A DNA stretch of 32,000 bases from positions 1,020,001 to 1,052,000 of the forward strand of contig JAXLZO010000001.1 in assembly GCA_046350815.1 (NCBI GenBank). The letters are read 5' to 3'. Position 1 is the first letter of the stretch, and each line of letters begins with the position of its first letter. A program made the translations under genes and the position numbers. The DNA comes from Candidatus Saccharimonadota bacterium (GTDB lineage: Bacteria > Patescibacteriota > Gracilibacteria > BD1-5 > UBA2023). Under the pieces are notes generated by a model. It did not search any database. It had not been told where the DNA came from and saw nothing but the letters and a program-made list of their open reading frames with translations. Below, one piece after another: positions 1 to 32,000 of this stretch.

Positions 1-112
1 ACAATTTCTCTTATTTTTGCATCTCAAATTCGTGATTTTTTCCTATAGGTAGTTTTACTGATCATAGAGCCAAGTTTATGGGATAATTTATCCTGTCAAC
101 TGGTTTAGACCC
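1..112 (-). mobile_element. IS1595-family insertion sequence, window-truncated copy (only the transposase-proximal 112 bp visible)
   Basis: nt 1-112 match 29359-29470 base for base by eye and end in the same terminal repeat AACTGGTTTAGACCC. The transposase ATG is at 65-63 reading leftwards (MISKTTYRKKSRIGDAKIREIV...). Confidence 0.85.
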
Positions 113-114
113 TA

Positions 115-1749
115 AAAAATATCTCCACTGGGGTAGGTATAGCACATACACGTTGGGCAACACATGGATGAGTGGAGATAGTCAACTGCCATCCACATCT
201 TTCACAAAATGGAAGATTTGCACTCGTGCATAACGGTATTATTGAGAACTACCAAGAATTAAAAAATACACTCACGAGTGAATGAATCATATTTGAGTGA
301 CAAACTGATTCGGAAGTAGTTGCAAAGATGCTCGAAGGTGCACAAGGAAATACAATGGAGGAAAAGTGGCAGAATATTGCACCAAAACTTCAGTGAGCCT
401 ATGCATTTCTCATCATCGATAGAGATCAGCCAAATGATCTTCTTGCTGTTCGCAATGGAAGTCCACTTATTTTTGGGAAGAAAAACACGAGCAAAGAATT
501 CTATTTTACCAGTGATCAAAATGCACTCGCATGATTTGCAGATGATATTATTTTTCTTGAAGATGGGGAATATGTTTGTATCACGGGAGAGACACATAAG
601 ATATTCTCACCAACCGATGGAGAGCGTAGAGTATTTCAGAATCTCATGACAACAACTGATCAGATATCCAAATGAGATTTTGATCATTTTATGCTCAAGG
701 AAATATATGAACAGAGTGATGTAATCAAGAATGCTTTGATGGGTCGTATTGACTTTGATACACTCTCTGTCGATTCTCAATCACTCCGTGAGATCAAAAA
801 TATGGAAGACATTACATCTGTCCACTTTATCGCTTGCGGAACGTCCTATCATGCTTGTCTGTACGGCGCACGACTCATCGAAGAATATGCACACATTTCA
901 ACATATACGCACTATGGGCATGAGGCTATAGAAGAGCTTCCAGAAGTCGATAACCATTCACTCTATATTTTCGTATCACAAAGTGGTGAGACAGCAGATA
1001 CGCTCGACCCTCTCAAATATCTCAAACATCGCTGAGCAAGAACTTTCTCTATTGTGAATGTCGTTGGATCAAGTATTGCACGACTCTGCGATGCTGGTCT
1101 CTATACACGAGCATGAATCGAGATAGGAGTTGCATCTACCAAGGCATTTACTGGTCAATGTATTGCCCTTCTGCTTCTTGCAATAACGCTCGCAAATACT
1201 CATAATCAGGAAGAAAAAACCAGAGATATGATTTACGAACTAAGTGGACTATCACAAAAAATTGAGAACTCCACACGAGATATACACGCAAGCGTAAAAA
1301 CAATAGCACAAAAAATGAGTCAAAGTCATATTATCTTCTTTCTCGCGAGAGAAATAATGATCCCTATTGCACATGAGTGAGCACTCAAACTTCGTGAAAT
1401 TAGTTATCAACCAACCATACCACTCCCAGCATGAGAACTCAAGCATGGCTCACTAGCACTTATCGACACAGAAAGCGTGAGTATATGCATCATGGGAACA
1501 TGACATACTCTCGATCGTAATAAATCATCTCTCCACGAGATCAAGGCACGTGGCGGATATACTATTGCTATAGCCGATCGTATGATTGATGAAGCTGATG
1601 AGACAATCCTTATTCCATCTATTCACAAAGACCTCTCCCCTATCATAGCAAATATTGCACTCCAACTTCTCTCCTACGAGACAGCTCTTGCTCTCGGACG
1701 GGACATCGATAAACCTCGAAATCTTGCGAAGAGCGTAACAGTGAGATAA
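115..1749 (+). CDS. glmS: Glutamine--fructose-6-phosphate aminotransferase GlmS, 5'-truncated (about 65 N-terminal codons missing on this side of the IS)
   Basis: Table-25 translation gives [62 protein letters not shown] and NLAKSVTVR-stop(TAA 1747-1749). There are 11 in-frame TGAs, all at Gly positions of the family. The frame hits TAG at 106-108 inside the IS end. Confidence 0.9.
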
Positions 1750-1750
1750 A

Positions 1751-2518
1751 GGCTCTAGACAAGAAGAATTATCTTCTTACACTAGCTCCATATGATCAAA
1801 TACAGTAAAATCAGCTCTGAGAAAATACGAGAAATTTTGAAGCTATTTTTAGGAGACTTTACTGCTACTCAAACATCAGAACTTCTCGAAATATCTCGTA
1901 ACACTATTAACAGGTACTATGCTATATTTCGAGAAGAAATTGTGAGAATATCTATTGAAGAATCATCAAAGTTTTGAAAAGAATTCTGAGAATTTGAAGT
2001 TGATGAGAGTTATTTCGGTGTAAGACGAGTCAGAGAAAAACAATGAAGATGAGCGGCTGGAAAAACACCACAGTGTTTGGACTTCAGAAAAGAAACTGAA
2101 ATGTCTATGTAAGTATTGTTCCAGATTGTAGTAGAGACTCATTAATGCCTATACTATACAAGGAAAAGTTCTGGAATGATCCACGGTCAACTCTGATGGT
2201 TGGACAAGTTATGATGGGCTTATACTCAATGGATACGAACATTATAGAGTATTTCATTCACACAATGCACCACACAGGCATACACTTCGTTAAGTTTGCG
2301 AGATGAAAAAGTCATGTAAACGGTATAGAGGCATTTTGGAGTTTTGCAAAACAAAGAATGATCAAATTAAACTGAATCCGAGCAGATAAATTTCATCTTC
2401 ATTTGAAAGAATGCGAGTTTCGGTATAATTATCGCAATAAGAAAGAAGAAGCCTTACGGCTCCTTCTCAGAAGATTAGCGAAACGCTCAATTATTCAAAT
2501 GTTTGCTTGTCTAGAGTC
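1751..2518 (+). mobile_element. 768-bp IS1595-like insertion sequence, copy 1
   Basis: Terminal inverted repeats are GGCTCTAGACAAG (1751-1763) and CTTGTCTAGAGTC (2506-2518). It is flanked by the 7-bp direct repeat AGATAAA (1744-1750 and 2519-2525), which contains the glmS stop codon. An exact inverted copy lies at 23437-24204. Confidence 0.85.
1792..2518 (+). pseudogene. IS1595/ISXO2-like DDE transposase, disrupted by three frameshifts
   Basis: The homologous peptide is spread over frames: MIKYSKISSEKIREIL..FEVDESYFG..RGAAGKTP | VFGLQKRNGNVYVSIVPDCSRDSLMP | IQGKVLEGSTVNSDGWTSYDGLILNGYEHYRVFHS | FVKFARGKSHVNGIEAFWSFAKQR..ECEFRYN. The shifts are near 2070, 2155 and 2280. Compare the intact paralogue at 28731-29423. 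Confidence 0.7.
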
Positions 2519-2605
2519 AGATAAAAATTGTCATCTTTCCTTAAGAATGAAGGAATTAATAACATAACTCTACATTATAAATTAAGACAATATATCTGTC
2601 CACTC

Positions 2606-2636
2606 AAAATATCACCAAAGAGGTGATATTTTTTGT
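2606..2636 (+). terminator. Rho-independent terminator-like hairpin (probably the original glmS terminator, now displaced by the IS)
   Basis: AAAATATCACC-AAAGA-GGTGATATTTT followed by a T-run. Confidence 0.55.
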
Positions 2637-2738
2637 CTTTCCGATGAAAGTATGATGAAATACTCTGAGTAATCTATGTTCAATATTATGTGATATCTGT
2701 CATTGTTTCAGTCTCTAAAAAGCGTCTTTTGAAAGAAG

Positions 2739-3323
2739 ATGAGTTTCTGAAGTAAGTCTGTTTTCTGAAGCAATTCCTGATTCACCCTCACCGAACTCAT
2801 AGTAGTCATCACCATACTCTCTATACTCTCAGTGATAGGGTTTGTCGTGATGAGTCATCAGTCATCAGTGGCAAGAGATGGAAAGAGAATTAGTGATATT
2901 AAGACATTGTCAGAGAGTGCGAGAATTACCAGTGCACAGCTTCGAAAGCTTCCTACACCTATAGCAGATAGTGTCTCTCTTAGTGTGAGTGGATCATTCA
3001 TTGGATACCAAGGATTCATGAGTACGAGTATTGTGAATCCTCTTGGGTATGGATCAGATAAGATCTTTGATCCAAAAGACAATATACCTTATACCTATCG
3101 AGTCAATCAACACTACGACCAAGCACAGTTTCTTGCATATCTTGAGAATCCAAGATTTGAGAGGACGATAGAGATTGCTGGGTTGATGAAGAAGATAGGT
3201 GATATTGCTTCGCTTCGCGAAGTAGTATCACTCTCTCAAGCATACGCTCTCGATACTGCATATGCCTTAGATAGTTCCTCTGTGGATCTTTCTTCTCGTT
3301 TATCCCTACTCTGCAGGAGATAG
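2739..3323 (+). CDS. Type IV pilin-like / pseudopilin protein with prepilin N-terminal cleavage-methylation motif
   Basis: The translation starts MSFGSKSVFGSNSG|FTLTELIVVITILSILSVIGFVV. The invariant -1 Gly is the TGA at 2778-2780. The gene ends in TAG at 3321-3323. Confidence 0.75.
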
Positions 3324-3372
3324 ACTTTGAATCTTTCTCTCGAAGGGAAGTAAGCAACCTCTTCAGAATGGA

Positions 3373-5490
3373 GTGAGTGGTACAGGAAGTAGAGATATCT
3401 CTTTGAGTGATGCAAGTACGCTTGATATCATAGTGGGATCACAGTGAGACGATGAATATATATCCACGGATATCTCTACTTGATCTCTTCTTTCTCTGAA
3501 GGATGGAAGCTTCGGTGAGGATGCTTTGAGAGTGATCAATAGTGGAACCGGAAGCAACTGAAGTGGTACGGGAAGTGGGGATGGGGGATGATCAGGGAAT
3601 GATGGGTATGTATTGACTATGGGGGTGTATGATTATAGTGGATCTCCTTATGCTTATGGATATCTTGGACCTCTCACTGCTGCACTCTTTGGGGGAGCAC
3701 TCACGCCTAATCCAGCAGGTGATCTTACACCAAAGACTATTTGAGGAAAAAATATTGATAGTTTAATTATCATGGAGGGACAACAGTATCTCATACTGGA
3801 AAGTGAAAGTAATATTCCAAATGTTATTATTTCAGAAGGAAGTCAAAGTACAAGCTGTGTGTTCGCTCAAACAGAAGGAAATATAGATATTTTTGCTTGT
3901 GAGAATATCTCTATTGTTGGACCTTATACCGTTGGTGAGATGAGAAGTTTAGGAATGGAGGCGGGAGGGGTGGTACCAGTTGTGCCTACTATTCCAATAA
4001 ATCTTGTCTTAAGCCCTGGAGATACAGAAGTTACGGTGGGATGGAATCCAGTGAATACTGCAATAAGCTATACTCTTGCATGGAGTATTGGTAGTGGAAC
4101 ATATACAGAGATTACTGGTATAACAGGAACTGGATATATTCATACTGGACTTACGAATGGTTCAACCTACAACTACAAAGTCAAAGCGATAAATGCAAGT
4201 GGGGAAAGTGGTTATTCAAGTGTGGTGACTGGAGTGCCAAATGCGAGCTATAATCTCATTCCATGATCTTATACTCTCACTGAGAGTGGAACCAATGTCT
4301 GAACATTCAATGGATATATGGGCCAAACATTTATTAATCTCTACACTTCATATGGCTACAACGTGACTCCAAATCCTGGATGAAGCGTGAGCCCAGGGAT
4401 TATTGATGGAAAGAGTATAGAAGCGATTATTCAGTTGGGTAATACTATTGCTATTTATCTTCAATCATGAACAAATGACACAGAAAATATTACCGTTAAT
4501 AATATAGTTTGCGCTTGAAATGGTGTATCAGCAGGGCTGGCTATTTATTCGTGTACAACCTCTCCATTTGGAAGTTCACTTGTTGCTGGAGAACAAAAGT
4601 CATTTACGATGTTATTGGGTTGAATAGTTCCTAATACGTGTGGATTACTTCCTGAGGAAATTACTCAATTAAATAGCATTCAAGGATGAGCTAAGAAATC
4701 TGGTCAAAATTGGTGCGATCGTACCTATCTTGATTTTTCAAATAAATGACTCACAGTACTTCCATCTGCACTCAGCAAACTCAATCAACTTGAATATCTT
4801 TATTTTCAAAATAATTCTATTACCGAACTACCAACATGGGTCGGAACATCATTTCCAAGCTTATATGCTTTTAATGGAAGCAATAATCTTATAACTTCCA
4901 TTCCTGAAACATTTCATCCAGCAACAATTTTTGCAAATTATCCAGATGGCGTTGTTCAAATAATTCGTCTTGCAAATAATCAGATCACATCATTACCAAA
5001 TAGCTGGAATAATACTACTATTTCAAACGTTCAACAAATCGATCTCACATGAAATCCAGCGCTATGAAGCCTGTCCGCAAATTTAGGTCAAATCGGGGGC
5101 TGATGATGTCCATCATCTGATAGCGTATTTACTATTCGAGAGAATTATGGAGTCACTACAGATTGAGGAGGAGTTCGGGTTATTCAATCAGAATGCTTAT
5201 TTCCAACTTTTCCTGGAAAAATTATTACATGGTCGCCAAATACTCCAGCTCCTGGTGCAGCATATAGCACTGTATGATATAATGCTTTTGAGACTGAAAA
5301 TCACTGCTGACTGACGTCAGCACAAGTAGCACTCATGAATGAGTCAGATGCCTGATACCGGCAAAAGATGCTTTTGTGAGAATATAGCGATGGTTTCTCT
5401 GCTCAGAACTTCACATGACGCAAACAACTGTTTTCATATGATGCACAAGGCTCTGTTGGTATGTATACAGCTGGTTGGTGGTGTAATTAG
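3373..5490 (+). CDS. Large secreted/surface protein with Gly-rich linker, fibronectin type III domain and leucine-rich repeats (start uncertain)
   Basis: A single table-25 frame is open from 3271 to TAG 5488-5490 with more than 20 in-frame TGAs. The FN3-like segment is PINLVLSPGDTEVTVGWNPV..YTLAWS..GSTYNYKVKAINASGESGYS. The LRR segment is LTVLPSALSKLNQLEYLYFQNNSITELP..NNLITSIP..LANNQITSLP. No in-frame ATG occurs before 3617, so GTG 3373 was chosen arbitrarily. Confidence 0.65.
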
Positions 5491-5634
5491 GAATCAGCTT
5501 AGACTTCTGAAAATCACATAGTTTACTTAGTGCTAATATTTTGATCTGATGTCTTTGTTTGGAATTAACCAGATAACATAACACAACACATCTCCCAAAT
5601 CTAACAACCTGTAAACTATAATAGGAAGATTGTT

Positions 5635-7326
5635 TTACAACTCCTTCACCATATACGTTCCCTCAAGACGATATCCAAGTTGTTCATAGTATCCTCGAAC
5701 CCCAACTCATGCAATAACAGCAATACGACGGATACTCGGATATTCCGATCGAACAATTTCTTCAGCTTGAGTGATGAGCTTACGTGCAAGTCACCGATTC
5801 TGTATACTATCTGATGTAATAGTATTTCCAATAGGGAGAGTTACTCCAAATGTATGCACCTCACGAATGAGAGCAGCTCCAATAATTTCTGGAATGCCGA
5901 GATCTTCACCTGATGGAATTCGTAGTCGAGTGAGACTATAGAGTATATCACTCGCAGGGTCAATCCATTCGAGAAAATATTCGATGCCATTACTTGCTTC
6001 ATAGCGAGTGGTTTTTATCTCAAGAGCATCTAAGTACAGATCACTCAGTCGTACTTCACGATGAGACATATCAACCAGATGTTTTCATTGTGATTCGATC
6101 TTCTCGAAGGTAAGTTGACGAAGATTCGCAAGAGTAGATCCAGCGAGAATCTCATGCGCTGGAATATCACGATAGAGACGATTGAGTCGAACGTACCGTG
6201 GTACCATGATCTGGAGATCCGCCATGAGATCGATCAAAGTTGTGTCATCATAGGGAGTATATCAACCCGATTTCCACACTCATTCCAGCTCCGTATATGC
6301 CGTCACAACCGTCGGGTAGATCTTGATTTCATCAGGGCGAAAATCACTACTATTCCAAATACAAGCAAAACTCTCCCGATCCATCTCTGGTGTACTTCAT
6401 GGAAGATTCTGCATCATATGTGCTACAACTTTGATACCTGCATCCTTGAGGAGTCGTGTCGCTCGAATCGATTCAGTATTACCATGACCTCGCTTCGTCA
6501 GTTCATTGATAGAATCAAAAGTTGTCTGATATCCAAGTTCCACTCGAGTCACGCCATATCTTCGGAGTGTTCGGACTTCTTCATGAGTGACCCAATCAGG
6601 ACGTGTCTCAATAGCTATACCTATGACACGACAAGAGGCGGTTTGATTTCTTTTTTGTGCTTCCTCCAATGTTTTAGATCTATCAGGATGAAAATCCTTA
6701 GGAATATGAAACCCAATATATTTGGATGTATTTCCATCTTCAAAGGCCTCAGCAACAATCGATTCACGAAGCTGGGAATAGAGAGTATGTGCATCATAAA
6801 TATCAATCATAACCTGCTCTCGATAAGATTCAGGATAAACACTCCATGTACCACCGATAACACGCACATCACATTTATCAATAACATGTCCTGTGATCTC
6901 GAGAGATCTCAGGCGATTTTGAATTTGACGAAACGTATCGAACTCATTCATCTCAGCTCGCATCACCGCAGGCTCTCCACTCACATAACTCTTCGGAAGA
7001 TTATCATAGGTGGGGCAATAGGTGCATTGACCAGGGCAACCCCAAAATTTTGTTAAAAAAGAAATCACTGCAACTCATGAACTCGAACGAACTGCTCTCT
7101 TACGCAAGAGACTCATGACTCGCGCATCCATCGAGAGGATTCATTGATCACACAACACTCGATACCTATCAATAAAGAGAGAGAATGAGGGTGGTGCTGA
7201 GACTCTACTACGTGCATAGTAGGGAAGACAAAATTGGCAAAATTGTTCTTTTGTCACCATTTCTGTATTGCGAGCAACCTCAAGAAGAATAGAGTCAATA
7301 AGGGGAACAAGATTCGTAGAAGGCAT
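5635..7326 (-). CDS. elp3: Elp3-family radical SAM + GNAT acetyltransferase (tRNA U34 modification enzyme homologue)
   Basis: SGVAVISFLTKFWGCPGQCTYCP matches the radical-SAM Cys cluster. TRVELGYQT, GIKVVAHMM and IYPT are also present. The C-terminal GNAT motif Q-N-R-G-L-A-R-K-L has its Gly encoded by TGA 5791-5793. Four standard-code fragments are co-linear in one frame, and the gene ends in TAA 5635-5637. Confidence 0.8.
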
Positions 7327-7336
7327 GAAAAAAGTT

Positions 7337-7600
7337 TTATTTCGAAAGAGTGTGAGTAATACGCGCAAAGAGAACACCTGGAAGACGTGTAGCAGAATAC
7401 CAACCTATATGAGAATAGCACTCAGTAGGAATACCTCGAAAAATATCATCAAACAAAAGATAACATCGATTTGATTGCCAGCTTGGTGCGACCCTATCAG
7501 AAAAGAGCATCCAAGCAAGAGATGCTTGCAAGAATTTTAATGAATCAACAAAGAGAAGGATGATTTGAAAGATACTGTTGTCATCGAGCGATCTTTGCAT
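7337..7600 (-). CDS. Hypothetical protein (87 aa)
   Basis: Open frame directly upstream of elp3 on the same strand. It has no recognisable motif and no clear SD sequence. Confidence 0.3.
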   Translation of the reverse strand: MQRSLDDNSIFQIILLFVDSLKFLQASLAWMLFSDRVAPSWQSNRCYLLFDDIFRGIPTECYSHIGWYSATRLPGVLFARITHTLSK

Positions 7601-7638
7601 ACTATGTTTAAAAATAAATAGGGTTTAAAATACGAGAT

Positions 7639-8286: not shown

Positions 8287-8298
8287 TAAGCAATATTT

Positions 8299-9671: not shown

Positions 9672-9697
9672 AAAAACCTCGTTTCCACGAGGTTTTA
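9672..9697. terminator. Bidirectional terminator hairpin between convergent genes
   Basis: AAAAACCTCG-TTTCCA-CGAGGTTTT. The lepA stop codon (9695-9697) touches the stem. Confidence 0.6.
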
Positions 9698-11596
9698 CTT
9701 TTTCAGAATCTTCACGAATGTCTCTGATGGGATTGATACCTTTCAGAACATTTTCATTTTCTTCTTTCCTTCTTTCTGTTTTTCGAGAAGTTTTCTCTTA
9801 CGTGATATATCACCACCGTAGAGTTTTGCTGTGACATCTTTACGAAGTGCAGATATATCTTCGCGTGCAATCACCGTATTTCCTAAGGCTGCCTGGATCG
9901 TGATCGCAAACTGAGCCTTTGGTATCTCATCTCGTAGTTTTTTTGTAATACGTGTACCAACGCCTCGAGCCTTGTCACGATGGACAATAGTAGAGAATGC
10001 ATCAACTCGCTCCCCCGCTACCAGAATATCAAGCTTTTCGAGCGTATCAGCTTGGTATCTCAGAAACTCATAGCTCATACTTGCATATCCAGACGTTACT
10101 GATTTGAGGTCATCATAGAAATCACCCACTAATTCAGCCATCGGAATTTCATAATGAATCACCGCACGATTCTGATCGAGAAATTGTTGATTCTTCATCA
10201 TACCTCGATGGTCCTGTGCAAGTTCAATAACATTCCCTATAAATTCCTTTGGTGTTATAAGCTCCACTTTTGCTATTGGCTCTTGAATCTCAATATACAT
10301 TCATGGTGCTGGAAGCTCCTCAGGATTAGAGATCATTACTGCTGTCGCAACCGTACCAGCATATTTGCTCGTTGAAGGAACTTCAATAATTTCTGGAGAA
10401 TGACGTGGATAAAACTGCGCTTTATCACCAGGAACCAGAACTCGAAATGTTACCTGAGGACTCGTCATAATTACATCCATAGCATGTTCACGCCAAAGAC
10501 GTTCCTTTACGATATCAAGATGGAGAAGCCCCAAGAATCCACAACGAAAACCATGACCAAGAGCAGGAGACACTTCCGGCTCAACAACAAGCGATGAATC
10601 GTTGAGCATAAGTTTATCGATAGCATCTTTGAGTTTTGGGTATTCATCCGTCTCAACTGGATATACTCCAGCAAAGATAAAAGGAGAAATGCGTTTGAAC
10701 CCAGCAATTGCTTTTTTATCCTCAGGAGCTCATCGATAAACCGTATCACCTACCTGGGCATCGCGAAGAGTCTTGAGTCCGGTAACAATATAACCAATCT
10801 CTCCTTCTCGAAGAATACCGAGAGGATTATACTTTGGTGAAAAACATCCAACTTCAATAGCTTCAATCTTCGCACCTGTGTTGATCATCTCAAGTTTATC
10901 ACCCTTCTTTATCTCTCCTGAAAAAAGTTTGAGATACGTCACGACTCACTTGTACGTATCATACTGCGAATCAAAGATGAGAGCCTTGACTGTGTCAGAT
11001 GGCGTGAGCTCACGGCCCTGCTGTCCAAGCATAACGATCTCAGAATTTCGATCGAGTTTACGAGGCTCGGGTACAAGCTCAATAACAGCATCAAGGATAG
11101 ATGCAACATTCAGCCCTGTCTTTGCTGATACACAGATAATATCATCTCTTCGACATCAGAGTAAGCTCATGACCTCCTGACTCACTCGATCCACATCAGC
11201 AGATGGAAGGTCAATCTTATTGAGCACGGGAATAATCGTGAGATCATGCTCCATGGCAAGATACACATTCGAGAGAGTTTGTGCCTCTATCCCCTGTGAA
11301 GCATCCACAACAAGAATAGCACCCTCAACCGAAGCAAGCGAACGAGAAACCTCATATTGGAAATCCACATGCCCAGGAGTATCGATGAGATTGAGCTCAT
11401 AATCCTTATAGTTCATACGAACTGGAGTGAGCTTGATCGTAATGCCACGTTCACGTTCAAGATCCATAGAATCAAGTGTCTGTGATTCAATATCACGTTT
11501 TTCAAGTGTTCCAGTGATTTCTAAAAGCCTATCAGCAAGAGTAGATTTTCCATGATCGATATGAGCAATAATACAAAAATTTCGAATGCCTTTCAT
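9695..11596 (-). CDS. lepA: Translation elongation factor 4 (LepA)
   Basis: [52 protein letters not shown] and [23 protein letters not shown] are all present. Five in-frame TGAs (11156, 10946, 10730, 10301, 9743) fall at Gly positions, e.g. DTYK-G-VV. The gene ends in TAA. Confidence 0.95.
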
Positions 11597-17008: not shown

Positions 17009-19738
17009 ATGCCACGATCACTTCTCCTTGCATCCACTGTATCACTTGGTCTCCTCTCTGGATTTATATTCATCCTTGTTGTTATCTTCTCCATATTCGT
17101 CGGTGATATGGGTGGATGACTCATCTGAGCTATCACGACAACGATCGTGATTAATTTCCTTCTCTGGCTCATGAGTCCTTGGTTCTCAGATTGGATGTAT
17201 CGATTTTTCTACAAGAACCAGTGGACAACGCTCGAAGAAATCGCGGTTGAATCTCCAAAAACAGCAGAAATCATCCGAAAAATCTGTGAAGCTGAGAAGA
17301 TCAAACTTCCAAAAATCGGTATTATCCCCGACGATAATCCGAATGCATTCACCTATGGATCTGGACCATGGAATGCTCGCATCATCATTACACACGGAAT
17401 TATTCGATTTCTCTCAGATGAAGAGCGATCATCGGTCGTCGCTCATGAGCTCGGGCATATTGCGAATCGAGATTTTATCATCATGACGATCGCGTCGACT
17501 CTTCTCCAGATTCTCTATGAGATCTATTATTACACAAACAAGCAAAAGAAGTGAAATAGTGATAATAGATCAAAACTTGCAATCGTAGGACTCATTGCTC
17601 TGATTTTCTATTGGCTCGGAAGCTATATTCTGCTCTATCTCTCTCGTGTACGTGAGTACGCGGCTGATGCATTCAGCGCAAAATACACCGATGCAAATCT
17701 CCTCGCAGATGCACTCATCAAGATCGCTATGGGCATCCTCTCGACTCCTGGTGATGCAAGACTGGTTAAATCCACTCGCTATATCGGTGTCGCATGAGAT
17801 GCAGTATCCAAGCAACTTGGACTCGTCTACAAGAACTGTGAAAAATCAGGATCATTCGAACTCCTCGGGCGATCACTCCTCTTTGATCTCAAGAGTCCTT
17901 GGGCATTTCTCGCTGAGCTCTCATCGACTCATCCACTGAGTGGTAAACGTATTGGTGCACTCATGAAACAAACGCTCGCACCAAAATATGATCTCGCAAG
18001 TATAGAAGCGAGACTCCAGATCGACACCAATCGTCTCTACCGATGATTTGCACGAGATCTCACACTCGTCATCATTGCTCGTCTTGCACCATGGATTCTC
18101 GGACTCATCACGCTCATAGCACTCCTTGCACTCCATATCCCGATCGAGTGAGGATTCCTCTTTGTAGTCACTGGATTCCTCGTGGGAATCGTCGTATCGA
18201 TGCTGATCAAACTCTGGATGATGTATCCAGCAAACCAAGATGAACCGACCACCATTCTCGAAGCAATGGGAGATATCTACGCTTCACCCGTACGAGGTCG
18301 CAAGATCTCACTCGAGGGGCAACTCGTCGGACGATGAATCCCTGGATATATCTTCTCGGAAGATATGCTGATGCAGGATAAGACCGGACTCATCTATGTC
18401 GACTACGAAAGTCGATTCGGATGGATCGGCAATCTCTTCTATTCACTTAAAAAAGCAGCAGAAAATATCGGAAAAGATGTACGAACGAGTGGCTGGTTCT
18501 TCCGAGATATGAGCTCTCGGATCGTCGCAGACCGCATCACAGGCGAAGGTATCGACCTCAAAGGCGGAGTACGACTCTGGATGTTGATCGGGATTATGTT
18601 TATGACCGTAGTGAGTGGTGTGGTAGGAGTGATGGCGAATACTATATACACAGATTATACAACAACAGAACAATCTAAGTTCATAGCAACAAATAAAGAG
18701 TCAACCAAAGAGGATCTTATAGCTCATCCAAACTGGAAATTTCGAGATCAATATGATGCTGTGTATGAATTTTCAGATGGAGTTGCAAAAGTAATCAAAG
18801 GAAAAGAGGGATGATTTATTAATGAGAAATGAGAAATTATTATCCCGATTGGAAAATATAAAATTCATCGTGATCAAGCAAAATCAGAAAGAATTGTATG
18901 AGAGAAGTATTGAAATAAATGCATTCTTTTGGATATTAATGGACAGGAGTTGTCCGAATTTGAATGTATATGATATCCTGAGTTTTCAGAAGATTATAAC
19001 AGTGTAATCACAAGTAATGGTCCTATACTAATAGATACTGATGGAAAAACTGTTATTAACAGTTGAATGTATGCTTATATAGGAGACTCTCAAGATGGTT
19101 TGATCCCAGTAATATTACTAGAGGGTTCAAAAAAACTTGGATTTATAAATACTGAATGAAAACTTATAATACCAGATATCTATGATAATACCTTGAGTGG
19201 TGATGAAAAATATTTTCATCAGTCTAAGGCAGTTATAAGTAAAGATGGATTATACGGGCTGATTAATAAAGAAAATGACACTCTTATTCCTTTTGAATAT
19301 CAAAAAATTAATACTTTTTTTGATTGAATTGCTTTTGCAAAAAAAGATGGAATATGTTGAACACTAAGTGAAGATGGTGTATTTACATCATTCGATTTCA
19401 CATGTACATCTATTTGAGAAAGTTATCGTGGTCTATCTGCCATTTTTACAAAATCAGATGATGGTGTTGTTGATAAGACTGGAAAATTCATCATAAAAGG
19501 AACATATAATAGTATTGATTTTCAAAACGAAAAAATCGTGGCAACAAAAGTTGACAGAACAACCTATAAAAATACAACGGATATTTACAATCTTGATGGA
19601 ACTCTCATGTATACAACAAAGTATGATGTACTATCTAATTTTCAAAAAAATTATGGATTTTGGAAAATAGTAAATCCAGATAATTCAAAAAAATATGGCT
19701 ATCTCTATCCAGACTGATATGTAAAATGGATTAAATAA
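17009..19738 (+). CDS. M48 (HtpX-like) zinc metalloprotease fused to additional TM segments and a C-terminal WG/KWG-repeat domain (909 aa)
   Basis: One table-25 frame runs from ATG 17009 to TAA 19736-19738. HELGH lies at 17444-17458 and REYAADAFSA lies downstream. The C-terminal repeats are of the type DGLIPV..KKLGFINTEGKLIIP.. / KDGLYGLINKENDTLIPFEY. Confidence 0.75.
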
Positions 19739-19750
19739 CTTTTCCAAGCA

Positions 19751-19787: not shown

Positions 19788-20648
19788 CTACCATATCTTC
19801 CTCCTCACATGACAATATGGCGTTTTGCCTGTGCGAGGATAATAATTCTGATGATAAGACTCCCCTATCCAGAATCTCTCAAGATCTCGTATTGTTGTCG
19901 CCACTCTGTATCCACGAGATGAGAGATCAGTGATAAGACTCTCGGCAATCGTTCGTTGTTCGCTATTTGTGACAAATATCACTGAGAGATATTGTTTTCC
20001 AATATCTGGACCCTGTCCATCTTCTTGAGTAAAATCATGAATCTCAAAGAATACTTTTGCAAGCGTTTCATAGTCGGTAATGGCAGTATCGTACCACACT
20101 TCCACCGCTTCTATATGACCAGTATTTCCACTACATACTTCACTATACTTGGGGTACTCCGTCTTGCCACCTGTATAGCCGATCGATGTCGAGAGCACTC
20201 ACTCGATCTGAGCAAGATAGTACTGCACTCACCAGAAACATCCAGCCGCGAAGACAGCATGACCAATATTCTCCATATCAGCATACGGTCGGAATCGAAG
20301 TGAGAGTGAATTCGCACAATGACGAGTATCACGGGGAGTAAATTGCTCACCATGAAATACATGTCCAATATGACCTCCACAACGCTCACATGTTATCTCG
20401 GTACGACGACCATCACTATCGAGAGTCTCTCGTACATTTCCGGGGATTCACTCTTCAAAGGATGGCCAGCCACATCCAGAATCAAACTTCGCATCACTCG
20501 TAAAAAGTGGTAGATCACACTGACGACAGACAAATACTCACGCACGTTTTTCCGAGAGATATTCCCCTGTTCCAGGATATTCTGTACCTTTATCAATAAT
20601 AATATCTTTTTCCTCAGGAGTAAGAGGATTGAGTTTGAAAGATGACAC
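19788..20648 (-). CDS. msrAB: Bifunctional peptide methionine sulfoxide reductase, MsrB-MsrA order (GTG start inferred)
   Basis: The MsrB part has CRQC..GCGWPSF..CERCGGHIGHVF..RHCANS. The MsrA part has FAAGCFW-G-VQ (Gly = TGA 20229-20231) and GYTGG..GHIEAV. No in-frame ATG lies between the upstream TAA and GTG 20648. Confidence 0.85.
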
Positions 20649-20708: not shown

Positions 20709-21485
20709 TTATCCTCCAATAATAAGAGAAGTCATACTCAGTGATCATGCCACGAGCTTATCATTGAATATCTCAACCTGATCACTCTCTCAGCACAGAC
20801 CCAATGTGTATAGAAGTGGCAAATAATGTTCTGGTGTTGGAATGGCAAGCTCAAAAGAATGTCCTTGTTCTCTATAGTGTATTAATGGTTCATAATCTTT
20901 TTCAAGAATACAACGATTGATTTTTTCCTGAACTTCTCGCGCCCAATTATAACCATAATCATCCTTGTTAAAATTCTGAAAATCAACGAGTCAAAGATTA
21001 TGAATAATATTCCCACTTCAGACAATGAGTATTCACTCATCTCGAAGAGGACGAAGCTGTTTTGCGACATCAAAATGATATTGTGGTGGCCGTGTGAGAT
21101 CGAGGCTCATCTGAACAACAGGAATATCCGCATGTGGATAGATATGCCTGAGTACGCTCCAGCTCCCATGATCAAGTCACCATGTATAATCAAGCTCTAA
21201 TTCAATAGGAGAAAGGATCTCTTTGATCTTATTTGCAAGTTCTGGACTCCCCCTTGCTCCATAACGCACTTGGTAGAGTTCAGGAGGAAATCATCAAAAA
21301 TCGTGAATCATCCTTGGATTCTCCATGGCAGTAACTGCAATTCCCCGTGTACACCAATGTGCCGATATGCAAAGTATCACTTTTGGTCTGGGTAATTGTT
21401 GACCAAGTACTTGAAATGATTCTGTAAATGAATTCTCCTCTATAGCATTCATAGGACTCCCATGACCCAAAAAGAGGACTGGCAT
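20709..21485 (-). CDS. ygiD: Class III extradiol dioxygenase, YgiD/4,5-DOPA dioxygenase (LigB) family
   Basis: MPVLFLGHGSPMNAIE, ISAHW, LDHGSWSVL, GSGNIIHNL and AGSLSMTSLIIGG-stop are present. Several in-frame TGAs fall at Gly positions. Confidence 0.75.
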
Positions 21486-21772: not shown

Positions 21773-23317
21773 CTATCTCTCCGTCTTTGGTTTACCGAAT
21801 GTTCTCTTTGGTTGATTTCATCGAGAAGGTCTTTGGCTTGGTGCTGATGATGAACTGCTTCTTTTTGGTGACCGTGATTGCGAAGGTCTCTCCGGACGAG
21901 TATTTTTTCAAGCATATCCCTCTTCCGAGGTATTTTGATACGATCAAAATTTCTTTTTACTTTGTCCTTTTTTCGGACTTCATTCTCCATAATGACTTGG
22001 CTTTGCGTTTCTCTTTTTGGCAGGTTTTGGAGTGGATCGCACATTTGATTCCTCTCCTCATCGTTGTGAAACTTTTGACGAGCCGTGAGGTGTATTTCCA
22101 ATAGGCTTTGATCCTTTTGGTCCTGATCGTGGTACACCTCGCCTCCCCTGTGGTTGTTTTGGTGCCTTTATAGGGTTATGATCTCGCAGTGGAAATGGAT
22201 GATTCTCAATGACTGGTATTTTTTTCGCAATGAGCTTCTCAACATCTCGCAAATATTCTTTTTCTTCTGCATCACAGAATGAATATGCAGTTCATTTTGC
22301 TCCTGCCCGCCCTGTTCTCCCAATCCGATGAACATAGGTTTCAGCAAGATTCGACATCTCATAGTTGATCACGTACTCAAGCTCATCTACGTCGATTCCA
22401 CGTGCGGCAATATCAGTTGCAACGAGTATACGAGTTGTCTGCGCCTTAAAATTTGTAAGTGCTCGCTGCCTTGCGTTTTGAGCTTTATTGCCATGAATTG
22501 CTTCAGCACTTACATTGTTCTTCAGGAGAATCTCAACAACCTTGTTCGCGGCATGTTTTGTCCGTGTAAATACAAGAGCTGTTTTAATATTGGTATCCTT
22601 GAGAATATCAAGAAGGAGTGCGCTTTTATTGCCTTTATCTACAAAATAGACATGTTGCTTGATTATCTCAGCGGTCGAAGATACAGGGGTAACGGCAACC
22701 TTCTGAGGATTATGGAGTATCGTGTTGGCAAGCCTCACGATATCTCATGGCATGGTAGCAGAGAAGAAGAGTGATTGTCTTTTTTTCGGAAGTACCGAGA
22801 GTATTTTCTTCACATCCTGCACGAAACCCATATCGAGCATTCGATCAGCCTCATCAAGCGTGAATATCTCAACATCAGCAAGATTCACAAATCATTGATT
22901 CATAAGATCCAGAAGTCTTCCTGGAGTAGCTACAACAATATCTACACCACTCTTGAGAGCTAATACCTGAGCATGTTGGCTAACACCACCAAAAATAACG
23001 CTATATTTAAGACCCGTATGCCTTCCATAAGAACCAAAGCTCTCACCAATCTGAAGAGCAAGCTCCCGTGTTGGAGTAATAATAAGGCTTCGTATTTTTC
23101 GTTTCTGCGTGTATGTTTTATTCGCACTCAAAAGTTGGAGGATCGGAATAGCAAATGCAGCAGTTTTTCCGGTTCCAGTTTGAGCACAACCAAGAAGATC
23201 ATTTCATTGGAGAATGACCGGTATCGATTGTGCCTGTATCGGAGTTGGCGTTGTGTATCCCTCTTCCTCAAGAGCCTTGAGAATAGGATCAATAATATTG
23301 AGCGATGAAAAGAGCAT
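21773..23317 (-). CDS. DEAD-box ATP-dependent RNA helicase (RhlE-like) with basic C-terminal tail
   Basis: [66 protein letters not shown] and [18 protein letters not shown] are present. The K/R/S-rich tail ends at TAG 21773-21775. Confidence 0.9.
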
Positions 23318-24204: not shown

Positions 24205-24221
24205 TAAATAATTGAAGTGGA

Positions 24222-24529: not shown

Positions 24530-25185
24530 TAAAACCCCCGCCTCTGGTGGGGGAAACACCTAGGTTCTACCGTTCCAACATGTACAAGAAAAAAGGTTAT
24601 GATAGTATCTCTCAAGCAGAGAGTCCCCAGAAGAAGGGTGCTTACTATCATAACCTTTTTTCATTCTTCACTTATGGCTCATACTTCCTTTGATTGTAGC
24701 TACCATATAGTACTTTGCCCAAAGTACCGCAAGAAAATTATATATGGAACTTATAAAACTCAACTCTGAAACATTCTCAATGATCTTCTGAGAGAAATGA
24801 AAATAGAAAAACTCGAATGACATCTTATGAAAGATCACATTCATCTTCAGCTCAAGATACCACCAAGTCTCTCAGTAGCAAAAGTCATAGGTACTCTTAA
24901 ATGAAAATCTGCCATACGACTCCATAATAGATATGCACCAAGAAGAACAGCTCTTGGACACAAACACTTTTGGTCACGATGATACTTCGTACGAACAACA
25001 GGACTCGATATTGAAATGATCAACAACTACATCTGTAACCAAGAGAAAGAAGATATAATTGAGGATGGTAATCAACTTGATCTTCACTTCTAGTCTCACG
25101 CTATCCTAAGTCTCACTATACTTCCCATTCAAGACCCTTCTAGGGTCTCTCTGCTAAAACCCCCTGTTCTACAGGGGGATATTTA
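24530..25185 (+). mobile_element. IS200/IS605-family element carrying tnpA only (boundaries approximate)
   Basis: The tnpA gene is flanked by G/C-rich subterminal hairpins: CCCCCGCC-TCT-GGTGGGGG (24535-24553), AGACCCT-TC-TAGGGTCT (25132-25148) and CCCCCTG-TTCTA-CAGGGGG (25160-25178). A 5'-leader stem of about 19 bp lies at 24589-24661. Confidence 0.65.
24674..25093 (+). CDS. tnpA: IS200/IS605-family Y1 (HUH) transposase TnpA
   Basis: MAHTSFDCSYHIVLCPKYRKK..., DHIHLQLKIPPSLSVAKVIGTLKGKSA, HFWSRGYF and NNYICNQE are present. Four in-frame TGAs fall at Gly positions, and the gene ends in TAG. Confidence 0.85.
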
Positions 25186-25223: not shown

Positions 25224-26738
25224 ATGCCAAAAAATCAAGAATCCACCCAAAACTTTGAAGCTCAGCTCTTCAAGGCCGCTGATAAGCTCCGCAAAAATAT
25301 CGATGCTGCTGAGTACAAAAATGTCGCTCTCGGGCTCATCTTTCTCAAGTATATCTCTGAGAGTTTTCAGGAGCTCTATGATGAGCTTGAGCAGGATGAA
25401 TACGGAGATCCAGAGGATCGTGACGAATACCTTGCAAAAAATATCTTCTTCGTCCCCGAGCAGGCTCGCTGGAAAAATCTCCAAGCAAAAGCAAAGCTTC
25501 CGACTATCGGAATCGAGCTCGACAATGCTATGGAAGCCATAGAAAAAGAAAATCTAGAACTCAGAAATGTCCTCCCGAAAGTCTTCGGAAAACAAAATCT
25601 CGATAAAACCTCACTCGGTGAGCTCATCGACCTCATATCCAATACCGAGCTCAAAACCGCAAGCCATAACTCAAAAGATCTCTTCGGTCGAGTCTATGAA
25701 TACTTCCTCGGGGAATTTGCGAATGCAGAAGGGAAAAAATGAGGACAATTCTACACTCCGAAATCCATCGTGAAACTCATGGTCGAGATGATCGAGCCCT
25801 ACAAAGGACGTGTCTATGACCCAGCGTGTGGAAGCGGTGGTATGTTCGTGATGAGTGAAAAGTTCGTCGAAGAACACCAAGGGAATATCAAAGATATCAC
25901 TATCTATGGGCAAGAGAGCAATCAAACGATATGGAAGCTCTCAAAAATGAATCTTGCGATTCGAAATATCAATTCCCAATTTGTCGCATGGAATACTGAA
26001 GGGTCATTTCTTCGTGATGCCCATCCAGACCTGAAGGCTGATTTTGTTATTGCGAACCCACCATTTAACCAATCCGACTGGGGAGTGGATGTTCTCGCAG
26101 ATGATGCTCGATGGAAATACGGAGTACCACCGTCTGGGAATGCGAATTTCGGATGGATACAACATATGCTCTACCATACTGCTCCAGGCGGTATCGTCGC
26201 AACTGTCCTCGCGAATGGATCACTCTCATCCAATACAAGTGGAGAAGGTGATATTCGTAAGAGACTTATTGAAGCTGATCTTGTCGAGTGTATCGTTGCT
26301 CTCCCGAAACAACTTTTTTACAACACCGGTATCCCAGCATGTATCTGGTTTCTTCGTCGTGAACGCACAGAGAGAAGAGGTGAAGTTCTCTTTATCGATG
26401 CGTCAGAGATGGGATATATGAAAGACCGAGTACACCGCGACCTATCAGAAGATGATATAGAAAAAATTGCTACCACATACCATAACTGGAGAAAGGGTGG
26501 AAATTATGAAAATGTAAAATGATATTGTCACTCTGCGAGTAAGACTGATCTCGAAAAACATGGCTATGTCCTCACTCCTGGACGATATGTAGGTATAACC
26601 GATGTAGTCGATGACGGGATCCCATTTGAGGACAAGATGCGAGATCTCACAGCGAAGCTCTCTGAACAGATGAAGCAAGAGAAACTTCTTGATGAAGAAA
26701 TCAAGAAGCAACTTGCAAAGATAGGATTTGAGATTTAG
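25224..26738 (+). CDS. hsdM: Type I restriction-modification system methyltransferase subunit HsdM (N6-adenine)
   Basis: The N-terminal HsdM domain has [25 protein letters not shown]. Also present are G-GQFYTP (first Gly = TGA 25740-25742), [11 protein letters not shown] and IANPPFN. There are only two in-frame TGAs, and the gene ends in TAG 26736-26738. Confidence 0.92.
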
Positions 26739-26849: not shown

Positions 26850-27977
26850 ATGCGCTTTATGATTGGAAAATACATTCAACAACCGTCAGGATATACTGCT
26901 TTTATTCCAAATCCATTTCCACCAGATGGAATTTTTGAATTTTCTACAAAAATATATCAAAAACTCTCTGAAGCGGAACGGCTCCTCGGAAAACTCGATG
27001 GACTCTCAAGTCGTCTTCCAGATCTCGATTTTTTTCTTTCGATGTACATACTCAAAGATGCCACTTATTCATCTCAGATAGAGTGAACTCGTGCAACGAT
27101 GATGGATGCTATCGAACTTTCAGCAGGGATTAATGAGAAAAATACAGATGCTGATGATATTCTTCACTATATCGAAGCATTGAACTATTCTATAAACAGA
27201 CTCTCTGAGTTTCCTTTTTCTCTTCGTTTTATCAGAGAGATTCATGAAAAACTCATGATGGGTGCTCGCTCTTCTCACTTCGCAGATCCAGGGAATTTTC
27301 GAAAGTCACAAAACTGGATCGGTGGAACTACTCCAGAAAATGCCCTCTTTGTACCTCCGCCAGTAGAAGTACTTCACACTGCACTCGATGATATTGAAAG
27401 ATTTATCCATAGTACTGAGTGTATACCTCTCTTACAAGTAGGACTTCTGCATGCTCAGTTTGAGACAATCCATCCATTTCTCGATGGAAATGGTCGTACT
27501 GGTCGCATCCTCATAACCCTCTTTCTCTATTCTCGTACGATGCTCGAGAAACCAGTACTTTTCCTCTCTTCTTATTTCAAAAAATATCAACAAGTCTACT
27601 ACGATAGACTCAACGGATACCATAATGGAAAAGTAGAAGAATGGATAGATTTTTTCCTCGATGGTATCATAGAGATCGCACGAGAATCCATAGAGACATC
27701 AAAACAAATCGATACCCTCCGGGATGAAGATATGCAAAAGATTCAATCTCTTGGAAAGAGGGAGGCAGGAAGTGGAGTAAAACTCCTTAATTTCCTCTTC
27801 AGTGAACCACTCGTAACGACCAATACTGTATCAAAGGCACTTTGATTCTCATGGCCTGGATCACAGAAAGCGATTGATAGATTTATCAACCTCAATATTC
27901 TCAGTGCCTACGATGAGACGGAGAAATATGGTAAAAGGTATATCTACAGACGATATATAGATATTTTTAATAATTAA
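26850..27977 (+). CDS. fic: Fic-family protein (AMPylase-type) with N-terminal inhibitory helix motif
   Basis: The Fic motif HPFLDGNGRTGR lies at 27471-27506. The N-terminus has GYTAFIPNPFPP. The inhibitory motif S-S-Q-I-E-G has its Gly encoded by TGA 27084-27086. The C-terminus is winged-helix-like, and the gene ends in TAA 27975-27977. Confidence 0.88.
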
Positions 27978-28370: not shown

Positions 28371-28717
28371 CTATGACTATTCACAACACAACGCATATAC
28401 CCGAATGATGGAGAGAAACGACCTTGGGAGAAATTGTCACTATTTGACGTTGATCTTCTCCAAGACCAATACAAGATTATTTATCAGACTTTGGTATACC
28501 ATGGGTTAAGATTTCAGATGCTACAGCCTCTCAAAATAGATTCATTGAATGAACAAAAGAATATATAAAAGAAGAAGGGCGCAGTACTTCTGTTCAACCA
28601 GGTAATCTACTAGTCTCCAATAGTGCAACTCCTTGAATTCCGAAATTTATGAGAATTCATGCTTGCGTACATGACTGATGGTTAGTATTCAGCAACTACA
28701 AAGAATTAAATAATGAT

Positions 28718-29470
28718 GGGTCTAAACCAGTTACGGGTTATATTGACGAAGTAACTTTAGCACTTCCTTATAAATATCTTTTCATTGAATACGACAATTA
28801 TATCTGAATTCAGATTCTTTCAAAAAATAGTAGAAGTAGACTTTCTTGATTCCATTGAATTGAGAGAGTCTTCTTTTGGTATAACTCCAAAATGACTCTA
28901 TTCAATTAATGTGTTGAGTTCATCTTGCAAATTCATTTGCTCCGTGATGAACACGGTAGTGTTTCTCATATCCAATATCTACAAGCCCATCATAAGCTCA
29001 CCATCCATCACTGTTAATCTCAGACTCTTCTATACGAAGTTTTCATCGAATGATTGGCACGAGAGTCCTTGCTTTTACATCAGGAACTATCTCAGTATAT
29101 ACTTTTCAGTTTCTTTTGAGTAAACCAAAGACTATTGTCTTCATACCAGCTCACCTTCCTCTCTTTCATCGGACTCTTGTTGGTCAGAAGTAACTCTCAT
29201 CTATCTCAACATTTCCAGTCCATATTTCATTCTTTTCTCTCTCACAGAGAAAGGCTATCGCCTTTCTGATATATCTATACCAATCCTGTGTTGTTTTTGG
29301 ATTGAGACCTGTTAATACCGCTGTTTTATCTGAAGTAAAATCCAGAGAAAAATATTTCACAATTTCTCTTATTTTTGCATCTCAAATTCGTGATTTTTTC
29401 CTATAGGTAGTTTTACTGATCATAGAGCCAAGTTTATGGGATAATTTATCCTGTCAACTGGTTTAGACCC
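28718..29470 (-). mobile_element. 753-bp IS1595-family insertion sequence (intact copy)
   Basis: Terminal inverted repeats are GGGTCTAAACCAGTT (28718-) and AACTGGTTTAGACCC (-29470). The 7-bp target duplication TAATGAT lies at 28711-28717 and 29471-29477. Confidence 0.9.
28731..29423 (-). CDS. IS1595/ISXO2-like DDE transposase (230 aa, intact under table 25)
   Basis: MISKTTYRKKSRIGDAKIREIVKYF...VEIDESYFGPTRVRGKRGRGAGMKTIVFGLLKRNGKVYTEIVPD...INSDGWGAYDGL...GYEKHYRVHH...HINGIESFWSYTKRRL...ESEFRYN. The TAA stop lies inside the left terminal repeat. Confidence 0.85.
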
Positions 29471-30327
29471 TAATGATTATTTATACTACTTCTTCTTGGA
29501 TTATCGGAGACATCTTGAACATTCCGCATCCTGAACTGTGTTCAAAAATCTTACAACAGATATTGTCAGGCATGTACCAATCCTCCTCCCACCCCTCCCC
29601 GAACAACGAGCTATCGCCGATATACTCTCATCACTCGATGCGAAGATCGAGCTTCTCCGAGATCAGAACGAGATACTAGAGAAGACGGCACAGACCATAT
29701 TCCAAGAGTGGTTTATGGATAATGAAACTTACCCAAGACAACGTTTATGAGATTTAATGATCGTAAAAAGATGATGATCTCCGAGACCAATTCAAGATTA
29801 TCTTCAAGAAAATGGATTAAGATGGTTAAAAATATCTGATGCCTCAGCAACTCAGTGACCGTATATCTTCGAAATTAAAGAGTGCATAAAAGAAGAATGA
29901 TTGAGAAAAACTATTCATTTAGATGCCTGATCACTTGTACTTTCAAATAGTGCAACTCCATGAATTCCAAAGATTCTTGCAGTTGATTCGTGTATACATG
30001 ATGGATGGCTCTATTTTCCAAAATCAAATTTCTCAAATGAATTCCTATTTTTATTATTCCAGACAATCAGACCTTTGCTCATTCAACAATGAAGTGGTAG
30101 TGTATTTACAAACTTGAAGACAGATATTCTAAAAGATTTTGAGGCACCATTACCAGATGATGATATATTAAAGGCATTTGATAATGTTGTAAAACCAATA
30201 TTTTCTAAGATATATAACAACTCGCTCCAAATCCAATCTCTCTCAAAAACTCGCGATACACTTCTGCCGAAGTTGATGAGCGGGGAGGTGAGGGTCGCTT
30301 AATTATTTTTTAACTAACTTTTAATTT

Positions 30328-30988: not shown

Positions 30989-31008
30989 ATGGAACCAACT
31001 GCACACCC

Positions 31009-31036
31009 AGTATAATGAGAATGCCTTGGTGAGCAA
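31009..31036 (-). promoter_or_regulatory. Candidate sigma-70-type promoter for ssrA
   Basis: On the minus strand: TTGCTC, 16 nt, TATACT, ending about 20 nt upstream of the mature tmRNA 5' end. Confidence 0.35.
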
Positions 31037-31052
31037 GAATTATTATGACAAT

Positions 31053-31385
31053 TTAGCCTTCAGGATCAATATTTGATCCGCGCATACCAATACCACCTCA
31101 CCTGCCAATAGGATGTTCTTCAACGAGTGCACCCAAAGCCTCGAAATAATTATCATTCGCTTCTCAACAACTCTTGCAAATACTCCAATTTGGTTGATGT
31201 GGCTTTCAACATGTTGAACAAGCATGAGAGGCTATCAAATCCACTACAGCTCTTCGAATAGCATGAGAGTATTGATTCAATCCGGCAAGACTTACCTCAG
31301 AATAATCAGGCAATTCTCTATACAACTTAAGTGCAGCACGTTCGATTTCACCACGAGCACGAAATTCAGAAACATTCATGCTCAT
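31053..31385 (-). CDS. Hypothetical zinc-ribbon protein (110 aa, table 25)
   Basis: MSMNVSEFRARGEIERAALKLY...HACSTC-G-KPHQPNWSICKSC-G-EAND. Both Gly residues of the CxxCG knuckles are TGA. The gene ends in TAA 31053-31055. Confidence 0.5.
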
Positions 31386-31495
31386 ATAAACAATAGTTTA
31401 AAAAAATATCAGTGATAGTAATCACGTAAAACTTATTGTCAAAATAGAAAATATCGCATTAAATATTACATAACACTAAATAAAATTATTATTAC

Positions 31496-31524
31496 TTGAC
31501 ATTATATATATAAATGATTAATAT
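31496..31524 (+). promoter_or_regulatory. Near-consensus sigma-70-type promoter
   Basis: TTGACA (31496-31501), 17 nt, TAATAT (31519-31524), lying 27 nt upstream of ATG 31551. Confidence 0.5.
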
Positions 31525-31550
31525 ACGTTTGTTATCTATTTTCTATTGGT

Positions 31551-32000
31551 ATGAAAATTAACACAATTCTTGGCATCGCTGCCACAATTTTTGCTACGAC
31601 TCTTGTTACAACTACGCTCACGGCTCAAGCATATGATGTTAACGCATACAATATGGGAGCAAAATCAGATACAGACAATATGGTTCCTTATGCGAGTGAA
31701 ATGAGATTTGCTCCATACTACTGGAACTACAGCACTTCGGACAACCGCAGAACTGAAGTTACAAACTACCGTCGTATGGTCCCTGTAGTGGCTGGCGGAC
31801 GCACTATTACAAATGTAGAGGTAGATGACAGCTTCAACGGTCAATATATCTATACAAGCTGGCGCTACTACCAGGAACGAACTGGTCAAACAAGCTATCC
31901 AGCAAATGCGATTTGGGTAAATACACCGAACGGTTATGGATTTTATGTTTCAACAACAAATTCATATTCTCCGACTACCACTCAATCGATTGTTATATAT
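31551..32000 (+). CDS. Secreted hypothetical protein, 3'-truncated by the window edge
   Basis: MKINTILGIAATIFATTLVTTTLTAQA|YD is signal-peptide-like. The frame is open to the last base of the window. Confidence 0.55.
   Translation, partial: MKINTILGIAATIFATTLVTTTLTAQAYDVNAYNMGAKSDTDNMVPYASEMRFAPYYWNYSTSDNRRTEVTNYRRMVPVVAGGRTITNVEVDDSFNGQYIYTSWRYYQERTGQTSYPANAIWVNTPNGYGFYVSTTNSYSPTTTQSIVIY

Follow-up and report, generated by a model that had tools for sequence, protein, structure and literature searches.

We conclude, with a probability of roughly 97%, that the 32,000-nucleotide stretch of DNA analysed here (contig JAXLZO010000001.1, positions 1,020,001 to 1,052,000; hereafter the window) is an ordinary part of the chromosome of an uncultured bacterium of the Gracilibacteria (BD1-5), whose code is NCBI translation table 25 with UGA as glycine. 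UGG is the sole tryptophan codon of this genome, and UAA and UAG are its sole terminators; the code is plain table 25 with no additional change of CGA or CGG. An earlier note, made from the letters alone, had proposed that UGA is glycine throughout the window. Its proposal is supported by a tally against solved structures, by the alignment columns of the elongation factor LepA (EF4), by codon exchange between relatives, by exchange between paralogues and by composition. Its assignment to code 25 of the Gracilibacteria lineage agrees with exact matches between our TGA-to-Gly translations and proteins of a metagenome-assembled genome (MAG) named Candidatus Gracilibacteria bacterium. It is this evidence from the sequence itself, rather than the taxon label, that carries the claim: the lineage name alone would be insufficient because two Gracilibacteria species keep the standard code (PMC8629427). 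The phenomenon, the lineage and the annotation of the exact contig (its GenBank record) were all known beforehand; the inference is accurate, not a discovery.

Across 25 reading frames (8801 codons) there are 168 in-frame TGA codons and not a single in-frame TAA or TAG. TGA amounts to 1.9% of the codons in these frames and to about a quarter (24-26%) of the glycine codons, second in use to GGA. When it is counted as glycine, the Gly content rises from 5.4% (GGN alone) to a normal 7.3%; counted as tryptophan, it would bring the Trp content to an abnormal 3.0%. The open reading frames (ORFs) change accordingly. Under the standard code the longest ORF is 321 amino acids (aa) and most of the listed ORFs are short and overlapping, against a longest ORF of 946 aa with TGA as a sense codon. 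Greedy non-overlapping ORFs of at least 100 aa cover 91% of the window if TGA is sense and 51% under the standard code, and merely 56-60% if TAA or TAG is taken as sense instead. Because TGA is the commonest stop triplet in the window sequence, a control of 30 composition-matched first-order Markov randomisations was added. With TGA as sense, these reached a coverage of at most 58% and a longest ORF of at most 284 aa.

Genes had been described as fragmented on the standard-code ORF track, and besides the difference in coverage the Pfam domains bear this out, since they are continuous through the TGAs. Unbroken domains were found in GlmS (SIS and GATase), LepA (all of its domains), the Elp3-type radical-SAM protein, the MsrB-MsrA fusion, YgiD/LigB, the DEAD-box helicase, HsdM, Fic, IS200 TnpA, the IS1595 transposase, the M48 peptidase, a TehB-like methyltransferase and PrgI. 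With TGA kept as X, the nitroreductase, HsdS and the IS1595-family transposases likewise occupy single continuous frames according to Pfam.

A side effect of the code is seen on the opposite strands. Because just two stop codons remain, long spurious ORFs run antisense to the M48/WG gene (16979-19027, minus strand, 683 codons), the Elp3 gene (6034-7056, plus strand, 341 codons), lepA (10133-11164, plus strand, 344 codons) and glmS (259-1239, minus strand, 327 codons). Gene finders run with table 25 may therefore over-call on genomes with two stops.

The identity of the residue was read from alignments of nine window proteins to their best solved-structure homologues, all of which come from standard-code organisms. 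Glycine is found opposite 28 of the 47 alignable TGAs (approximately 60%; binomial P = 5e-20 against a Gly background of 7.5%), and Trp or Cys opposite none of the 47. BLOSUM62 scores summed over the TGA sites are +143 for Gly, with Ser as the runner-up at +8 and Trp at -115. The glmS fragment (127..1749, plus strand) contains 11 in-frame TGAs, among them the one at 1114-1116 (RA-x-IEIGVAST, x being the TGA) and one in the motif HE-x-ALKL; they face E,G,S,G,P,G,G,G,G,G,N of E. coli GlmS. In lepA (9695..11596, minus strand) there are five, including 10946-10948 (DTYK-x-VV), opposite G,G,A,A,G of the solved structure. The msrB-msrA fusion (19788..20633, minus strand) has four, opposite G, P/A, G and G, of which 20229-20231 completes the motif GCFW-G. 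The gene for the YgiD/LigB-type 4,5-DOPA dioxygenase (20709..21485, minus strand; MFO0764230.1) has eight, opposite G,G,G,G,A,R,D,G of 2pw6. Seven of the eight TGAs in the Elp3-type radical-SAM/GNAT gene (5635..7326, minus strand; one of its eight lies at 5791-5793, QNR-x-LARK) could be aligned to 6iad and face G,G,E,E,G,G,G. Four of the nine in the DEAD-box helicase gene (21773..23317, minus strand; MFO0764231.1; one of the nine at 22292-22294, GRAGAK-x-TAYSF) could be aligned and face G,T,E,G. The remaining three proteins are HsdM (25224..26738, plus strand), with two TGAs including 25740-25742 (KK-x-GQFYTP) opposite G,G; the IS200/IS605 TnpA (24674..25093, plus strand), with four opposite K,M,G,S; and the Fic-family protein (26859..27977, plus strand; MFO0764235.1), with two opposite R,D.

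All eight codons cited in the earlier note are TGA at their coordinates and in their peptide contexts, but the note went too far in placing them on invariant glycines. This holds for the 60% of alignable sites given above, the remainder lying in variable columns. At 25740-25742 of hsdM, the homologue 3khk has G and 7vru has A. The TGA at 27084-27086, which had been taken for the glycine of the inhibitory motif of the Fic protein, falls in SxxxE(G/N) (SSQIE-x-T), and the solved structures have R or N there. The inhibitory motif of Fic proteins is (S/T)xxxE(G/N), with G or N at its last position. Similarly, the TGA at 2778-2780 (SNS-x-FTLTE), which had been read as the -1 glycine of a prepilin cleavage site, directly precedes FTLTE in a pilin-like protein (2688..3323, plus strand) and so takes the -1 position of the prepilin-type motif G|FTLxE; the likeness of the motif and a weak, sub-threshold N_methyl match (E=0.007) are what suggest this role. 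The overstatement leaves the conclusion that UGA is glycine unweakened. Tabulating the TGAs by alignment column was the check that the note itself had put forward, and its outcome is a majority of Gly and no Trp.

A large-scale column test was made on LepA alone. A scan of genome contigs for LepA gave standard-code organisms only, because tblastn breaks at TGA, and these loci became the control set of 67 standard-code LepA orthologues from GTDB genomes. At three of the five TGA columns Gly is present in 66/67, 67/67 and 67/67 of these orthologues; the other two columns are hypervariable. The mean Gly fraction in the alignment is 0.81 for columns where the window has GGN and 0.63 for its TGA columns, against at most 0.09 for every other residue class. 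In the 120 LepA proteins of the public collection that come nearest to that of the window, G stands at each of the five TGA columns, or 'W' in a minority of the sequences. Nearly all other scattered 'W' residues of these relatives likewise sit where the rest of the sequences carry G. For two relatives we fetched the DNA: each of their 15 'W' residues at such positions is a TGA codon, the depositor having used table 4. The scattered 'W' is thus the signature of code-4 mistranslation.

The same gene shows how TGA and GGN replace each other. Where one of five lepA genes of the lineage has TGA, the others carry GGN in 58/65 cases. The nearest relatives of the window LepA are labelled Gracilibacteria or 'uncultured bacterium (gcode 4)' and have in-frame TGA as well; neighbours outside its own 90% cluster are at most 76% identical. 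Exchange is also observed within the window: between the target-recognition halves of HsdS, as well as between two transposases of the IS1595 type, conserved motifs have TGA in one copy and GGN in the other (HDxW/HDGW, NGIE/NxIE, NxIR/NGIK). Apart from its codons, LepA has two inserted stretches, at residues ~183-201 and ~387-419, where its alignment to the solved structures of A. aeolicus and E. coli breaks, and lineage relatives have lengths of 624-633 aa compared to ~600 aa in the solved structures.

Public annotation of the same genes offers a further comparison. The TGA-to-Gly translations of eight proteins (HsdM, LepA, the DEAD-box helicase, Fic, PrgI, YgiD, the IS1595 transposase and the IS200 TnpA) are exact NCBI entries, LepA being MFO0764219.1 and the Gly version of HsdM MFO0764234.1. 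Two proteins without TGA, the nitroreductase (12008-12631) and a small hypothetical protein, are exact matches too. The matching accessions range from MFO0764216.1 to MFO0764235.1, with more for copies of the insertion sequences (ISs), are titled 'MAG: ... [Candidatus Gracilibacteria bacterium]' and belong to a contig 1,283,673 bp long. The Trp version of HsdM found no exact match in the protein collection. As the exact matches carry Gly at UGA, the GenBank record is already annotated with table 25.

Other public calls confirm the warning that a standard-code annotation of this contig would be badly wrong. On a Logan contig (SRR26348422) that is 100% identical to window positions 3594-19780, LepA is called in four pieces of 146, 52, 102 and 185 aa, and in the JGI and Logan calls for closely related contigs each TGA of an IS transposase appears as W. 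The same 90% clusters hold many fragments of 75-250 aa from other pipelines, such as the code-11 pieces of 75 and 247 aa for Fic. The LepA 90% cluster is itself represented by a 124-aa fragment, and for this reason the homology search missed the LepA of the genome itself. A wrong table thus breaks every gene into pieces or else gives Trp for roughly one Gly in four, and both errors are public for the same organism.

As to the mechanism, UGA in the window genome would be decoded as glycine by a dedicated tRNA-Gly with anticodon UCA and the glycyl-tRNA synthetase (GlyRS) identity set G1:C72, C2:G71, G3:C70 and U73; release factor 2 (RF2) would be lost, so that only RF1, specific for UAA and UAG, terminates. 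For the window genome this mechanism is inferred from the lineage literature, which describes both a tRNA-Gly(UCA) with glycine identity elements and the loss of RF2. Proteomics confirmed UGA as glycine in BD1-5 (Hanke et al. 2014, PMC4032931, as summarised in PMC6851277), and prfB was absent from all BD1-5 genomes then available (PMC6851277). The Codetta program assigned UGA to glycine in 13/15 Gracilibacteria species (PMC8629427).

Three observations weigh against glycine decoding. The two 'Gracilibacteria' species with a standard code also retain RF2 (PMC8629427). In distant homologues, about 40% of the alignable TGAs face a residue other than Gly (E, A, S, P, D, R, N, T, K or M). The columns concerned are variable, and those of LepA turn to Gly within the lineage. 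Finally, ARAGORN detected no tRNA gene in the window, and no tRNA with anticodon UCA in 0.50 Mb of lineage DNA spread over 89 loci, 0.14 Mb of which belong to this population or a very close one. These loci comprise the regions around lepA in five relatives, 60 loci from metagenomes that surround IS1595 homologues, and the surroundings of IS1595 and IS200 on JGI and Logan contigs of the same or a close population. The only tRNAs met in the lineage DNA were Leu-GAG, Arg-ACG, Arg-CCU, Arg-UCG and Lys-CUU. UGA might also be decoded in the window genome without a canonical tRNA-Gly(UCA).

Such decoding forms part of the alternative that survives best, although we consider it improbable: UGA might be mainly glycine but ambiguous, with occasional termination, misreading as Trp when U34 wobble confuses UGA with UGG, or decoding by something other than tRNA-Gly(UCA). 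A U34 anticodon indeed allows potential UGA/UGG ambiguity (PMC8629427), and the use of TGA differs between genes. However, the homology-defined C-termini of GlmS, LepA, Elp3 and YgiD all coincide with TAA or TAG (TAA where E. coli GlmS ends, and TAA again for Elp3), and TGA was not seen as a terminator at any of these four. This also upholds the observation that conserved genes end in TAA or TAG. Moreover, TGA occupies invariant glycines of catalytic motifs in GlmS, LepA and the motif VI region of the DEAD-box helicase, where frequent termination or misreading would be costly, and its uneven usage is explained more simply by gene history. No feature of the window points to ambiguity.

Still less probable, by our estimate, is that UGA encodes tryptophan as in table 4 of the Mycoplasma or endosymbiont type. 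UGA to Trp is the commoner reassignment in bacteria (PMC8629427), and several public pipelines put W at TGA in relatives and in the IS genes of the organism. Against this, none of the alignable TGAs stands opposite Trp, the substitution scores strongly disfavour it, the Trp content would become abnormal, and the 'W' of LepA relatives falls where other sequences have G. True Trp columns use TGG: this is the case in the motifs HTRW, GCFW and GCGW, at both Trp residues in the catalytic regions of the MsrB-MsrA fusion, and at W368 of LepA, which is W in 120/120 relatives. The statement of the earlier note that conserved tryptophans are written with TGG is correct for all of these motifs and for W368.

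The possibility that the standard code applies and the TGAs are real stops, because the region is degraded or pseudogenised, through errors in sequencing, or with programmed read-through or selenocysteine confined to a few positions, is practically negligible: table 11 does fragment every gene in a pseudogene-like manner and IS-disrupted genes (glmS and hsdS) do occur, but random decay would yield all three stops in random columns, whereas all in-frame stop triplets in the 25 frames are TGA, concentrated on conserved Gly columns and alternating with GGN, and the independently assembled Logan contig is 100% identical. Selenocysteine would be rare, placed at catalytic Cys and dependent on selenocysteine insertion sequence (SECIS) elements. 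It is ruled out by the number of sites and by the lack of any correspondence with Cys; in MsrA and MsrB the catalytic residues are ordinary codons and the TGAs lie at Gly positions. A phage or mobile-element origin of the window was rejected as well, as it contains housekeeping genes and is part of a 1.28-Mb contig.

A second reassignment has been described in this part of the tree. For Absconditabacteria Codetta predicted that CGA and CGG both encode Trp, and for some Gracilibacteria that CGG does (PMC8629427). In the window a single Arg codon is used more often than CGA (124 per 10,000 codons), and CGG is in moderate use (33 per 10,000). CGA or CGG is found at invariant arginines such as R5 (R in 67/67 orthologues) and R464 (64/67) of LepA, the motifs PTREL (motif Ib) and HRIGRTGR of the DEAD-box helicase, and HW(F/C)TRG of YgiD. 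A change of CGA/CGG to Trp of the Absconditabacteria type is ruled out by the common use of CGA and by these invariant positions. On closely related contigs a tRNA-Arg(UCG) is present, at 8045-8121 on two of them and at 77-153 on a third.

Compared to known systems, the window resembles table 25 in its in-frame UGA at Gly columns, UGG as Trp, UAA and UAG as sole stops, small genome (1.28-Mb contig) and NCBI name, Candidatus Gracilibacteria bacterium. Table 25, the Candidate Division SR1 and Gracilibacteria code, goes back to Campbell et al. 2013 and Rinke et al. 2013 as cited in PMC8629427, and its clade is BD1-5 / Absconditabacterales, which the gTranslate preprint equates with GTDB class JAEDAM01. 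There is no difference in the code itself, and UGA is heavily used in the window. The GC content of the window is approximately 39%, against 29-33% in the best-described BD1-5 genomes (PMC6851277, PMC4032931), and lies within the wider range of 0.21-0.53 (PMC8629427). Absconditabacteria (SR1), the sister lineage, share the reassignment of UGA to Gly but differ in their predicted use of CGA/CGG for Trp (PMC8629427), which encode Arg in the window. Table 4 (Mycoplasmatales, several insect endosymbionts and some Eggerthellaceae) also has UGA as a sense codon, in reduced genomes with RF2 loss according to the literature, but there it encodes Trp, a residue that no window UGA aligns with.

An FN3/LRR surface protein (3271..5490, plus strand, start uncertain) has 24 in-frame TGAs, and an M48 peptidase / WG-repeat protein (17009..19738, plus strand) has 18. 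The Elp3-type gene is a full-length bacterial Elp3 homologue in a reduced genome of the CPR (candidate phyla radiation) type, with E=9e-88 to archaeal and Dehalococcoides Elp3 structures.

The window carries a heavy IS load, with hsdS and apparently also glmS disrupted. About 64 codons are missing from the start of the glmS fragment, the catalytic N-terminal Cys among them, and its homology begins at residue 65 of E. coli GlmS. Window positions 1-129 are 95% identical to the end (29359-29487) of the IS1595-family element at 28.7-29.5 kb, and the homology to GlmS starts exactly there. The gene thus appears to be IS-disrupted, unless its 5' part sits beyond the IS outside the window. A type I restriction-modification module is arranged in the order hsdM, fic, hsdS, the last of which (28373..30302, plus strand) is split by an IS1595-family element whose transposase gene (28731-29423, minus strand) contains 10 TGAs. 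Judged by NCBI accessions, the genome holds at least five identical copies of the IS1595 transposase and at least four of the IS200 TnpA. In addition, a perfect (100%) inverted repeat of 773 nt, containing a degenerate IS1595-like ORF, is found at 1750-2522 and 23433-24205, with its arms 20.9 kb apart. This could be an invertible segment, a composite transposon or an assembly effect of a repeated element.

TGA is used unevenly among the genes. It makes up 5% of the Gly codons in hsdM, 8% in fic and 0% in the nitroreductase gene, but 50-69% in hsdS and in the gene for the IS1595 transposase (chi-square p = 2e-5). Relatives of HsdM that are 80-91% identical occur in unrelated standard-code lineages (a cyanobacterial MAG and Pacebacteria). 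The low TGA share and these close relatives fit a recent import of hsdM from standard-code donors. This uneven usage together with the mobile-looking hsdM, and the IS load that disrupts glmS and hsdS, are what we regard as mildly new.

Summarizing, the window adds one more member to a well-documented reassignment and opens no new question about the genetic code. Its Gracilibacterium has the UGA change without the change of CGA/CGG to Trp reported for the sister clade. It might be speculated, as an idea that we hold only tentatively and think rather doubtful, that the use of TGA for Gly records the residence time of a gene in a recoded genome. If so, recent imports across a genetic-code boundary would be recognisable and could be roughly dated.

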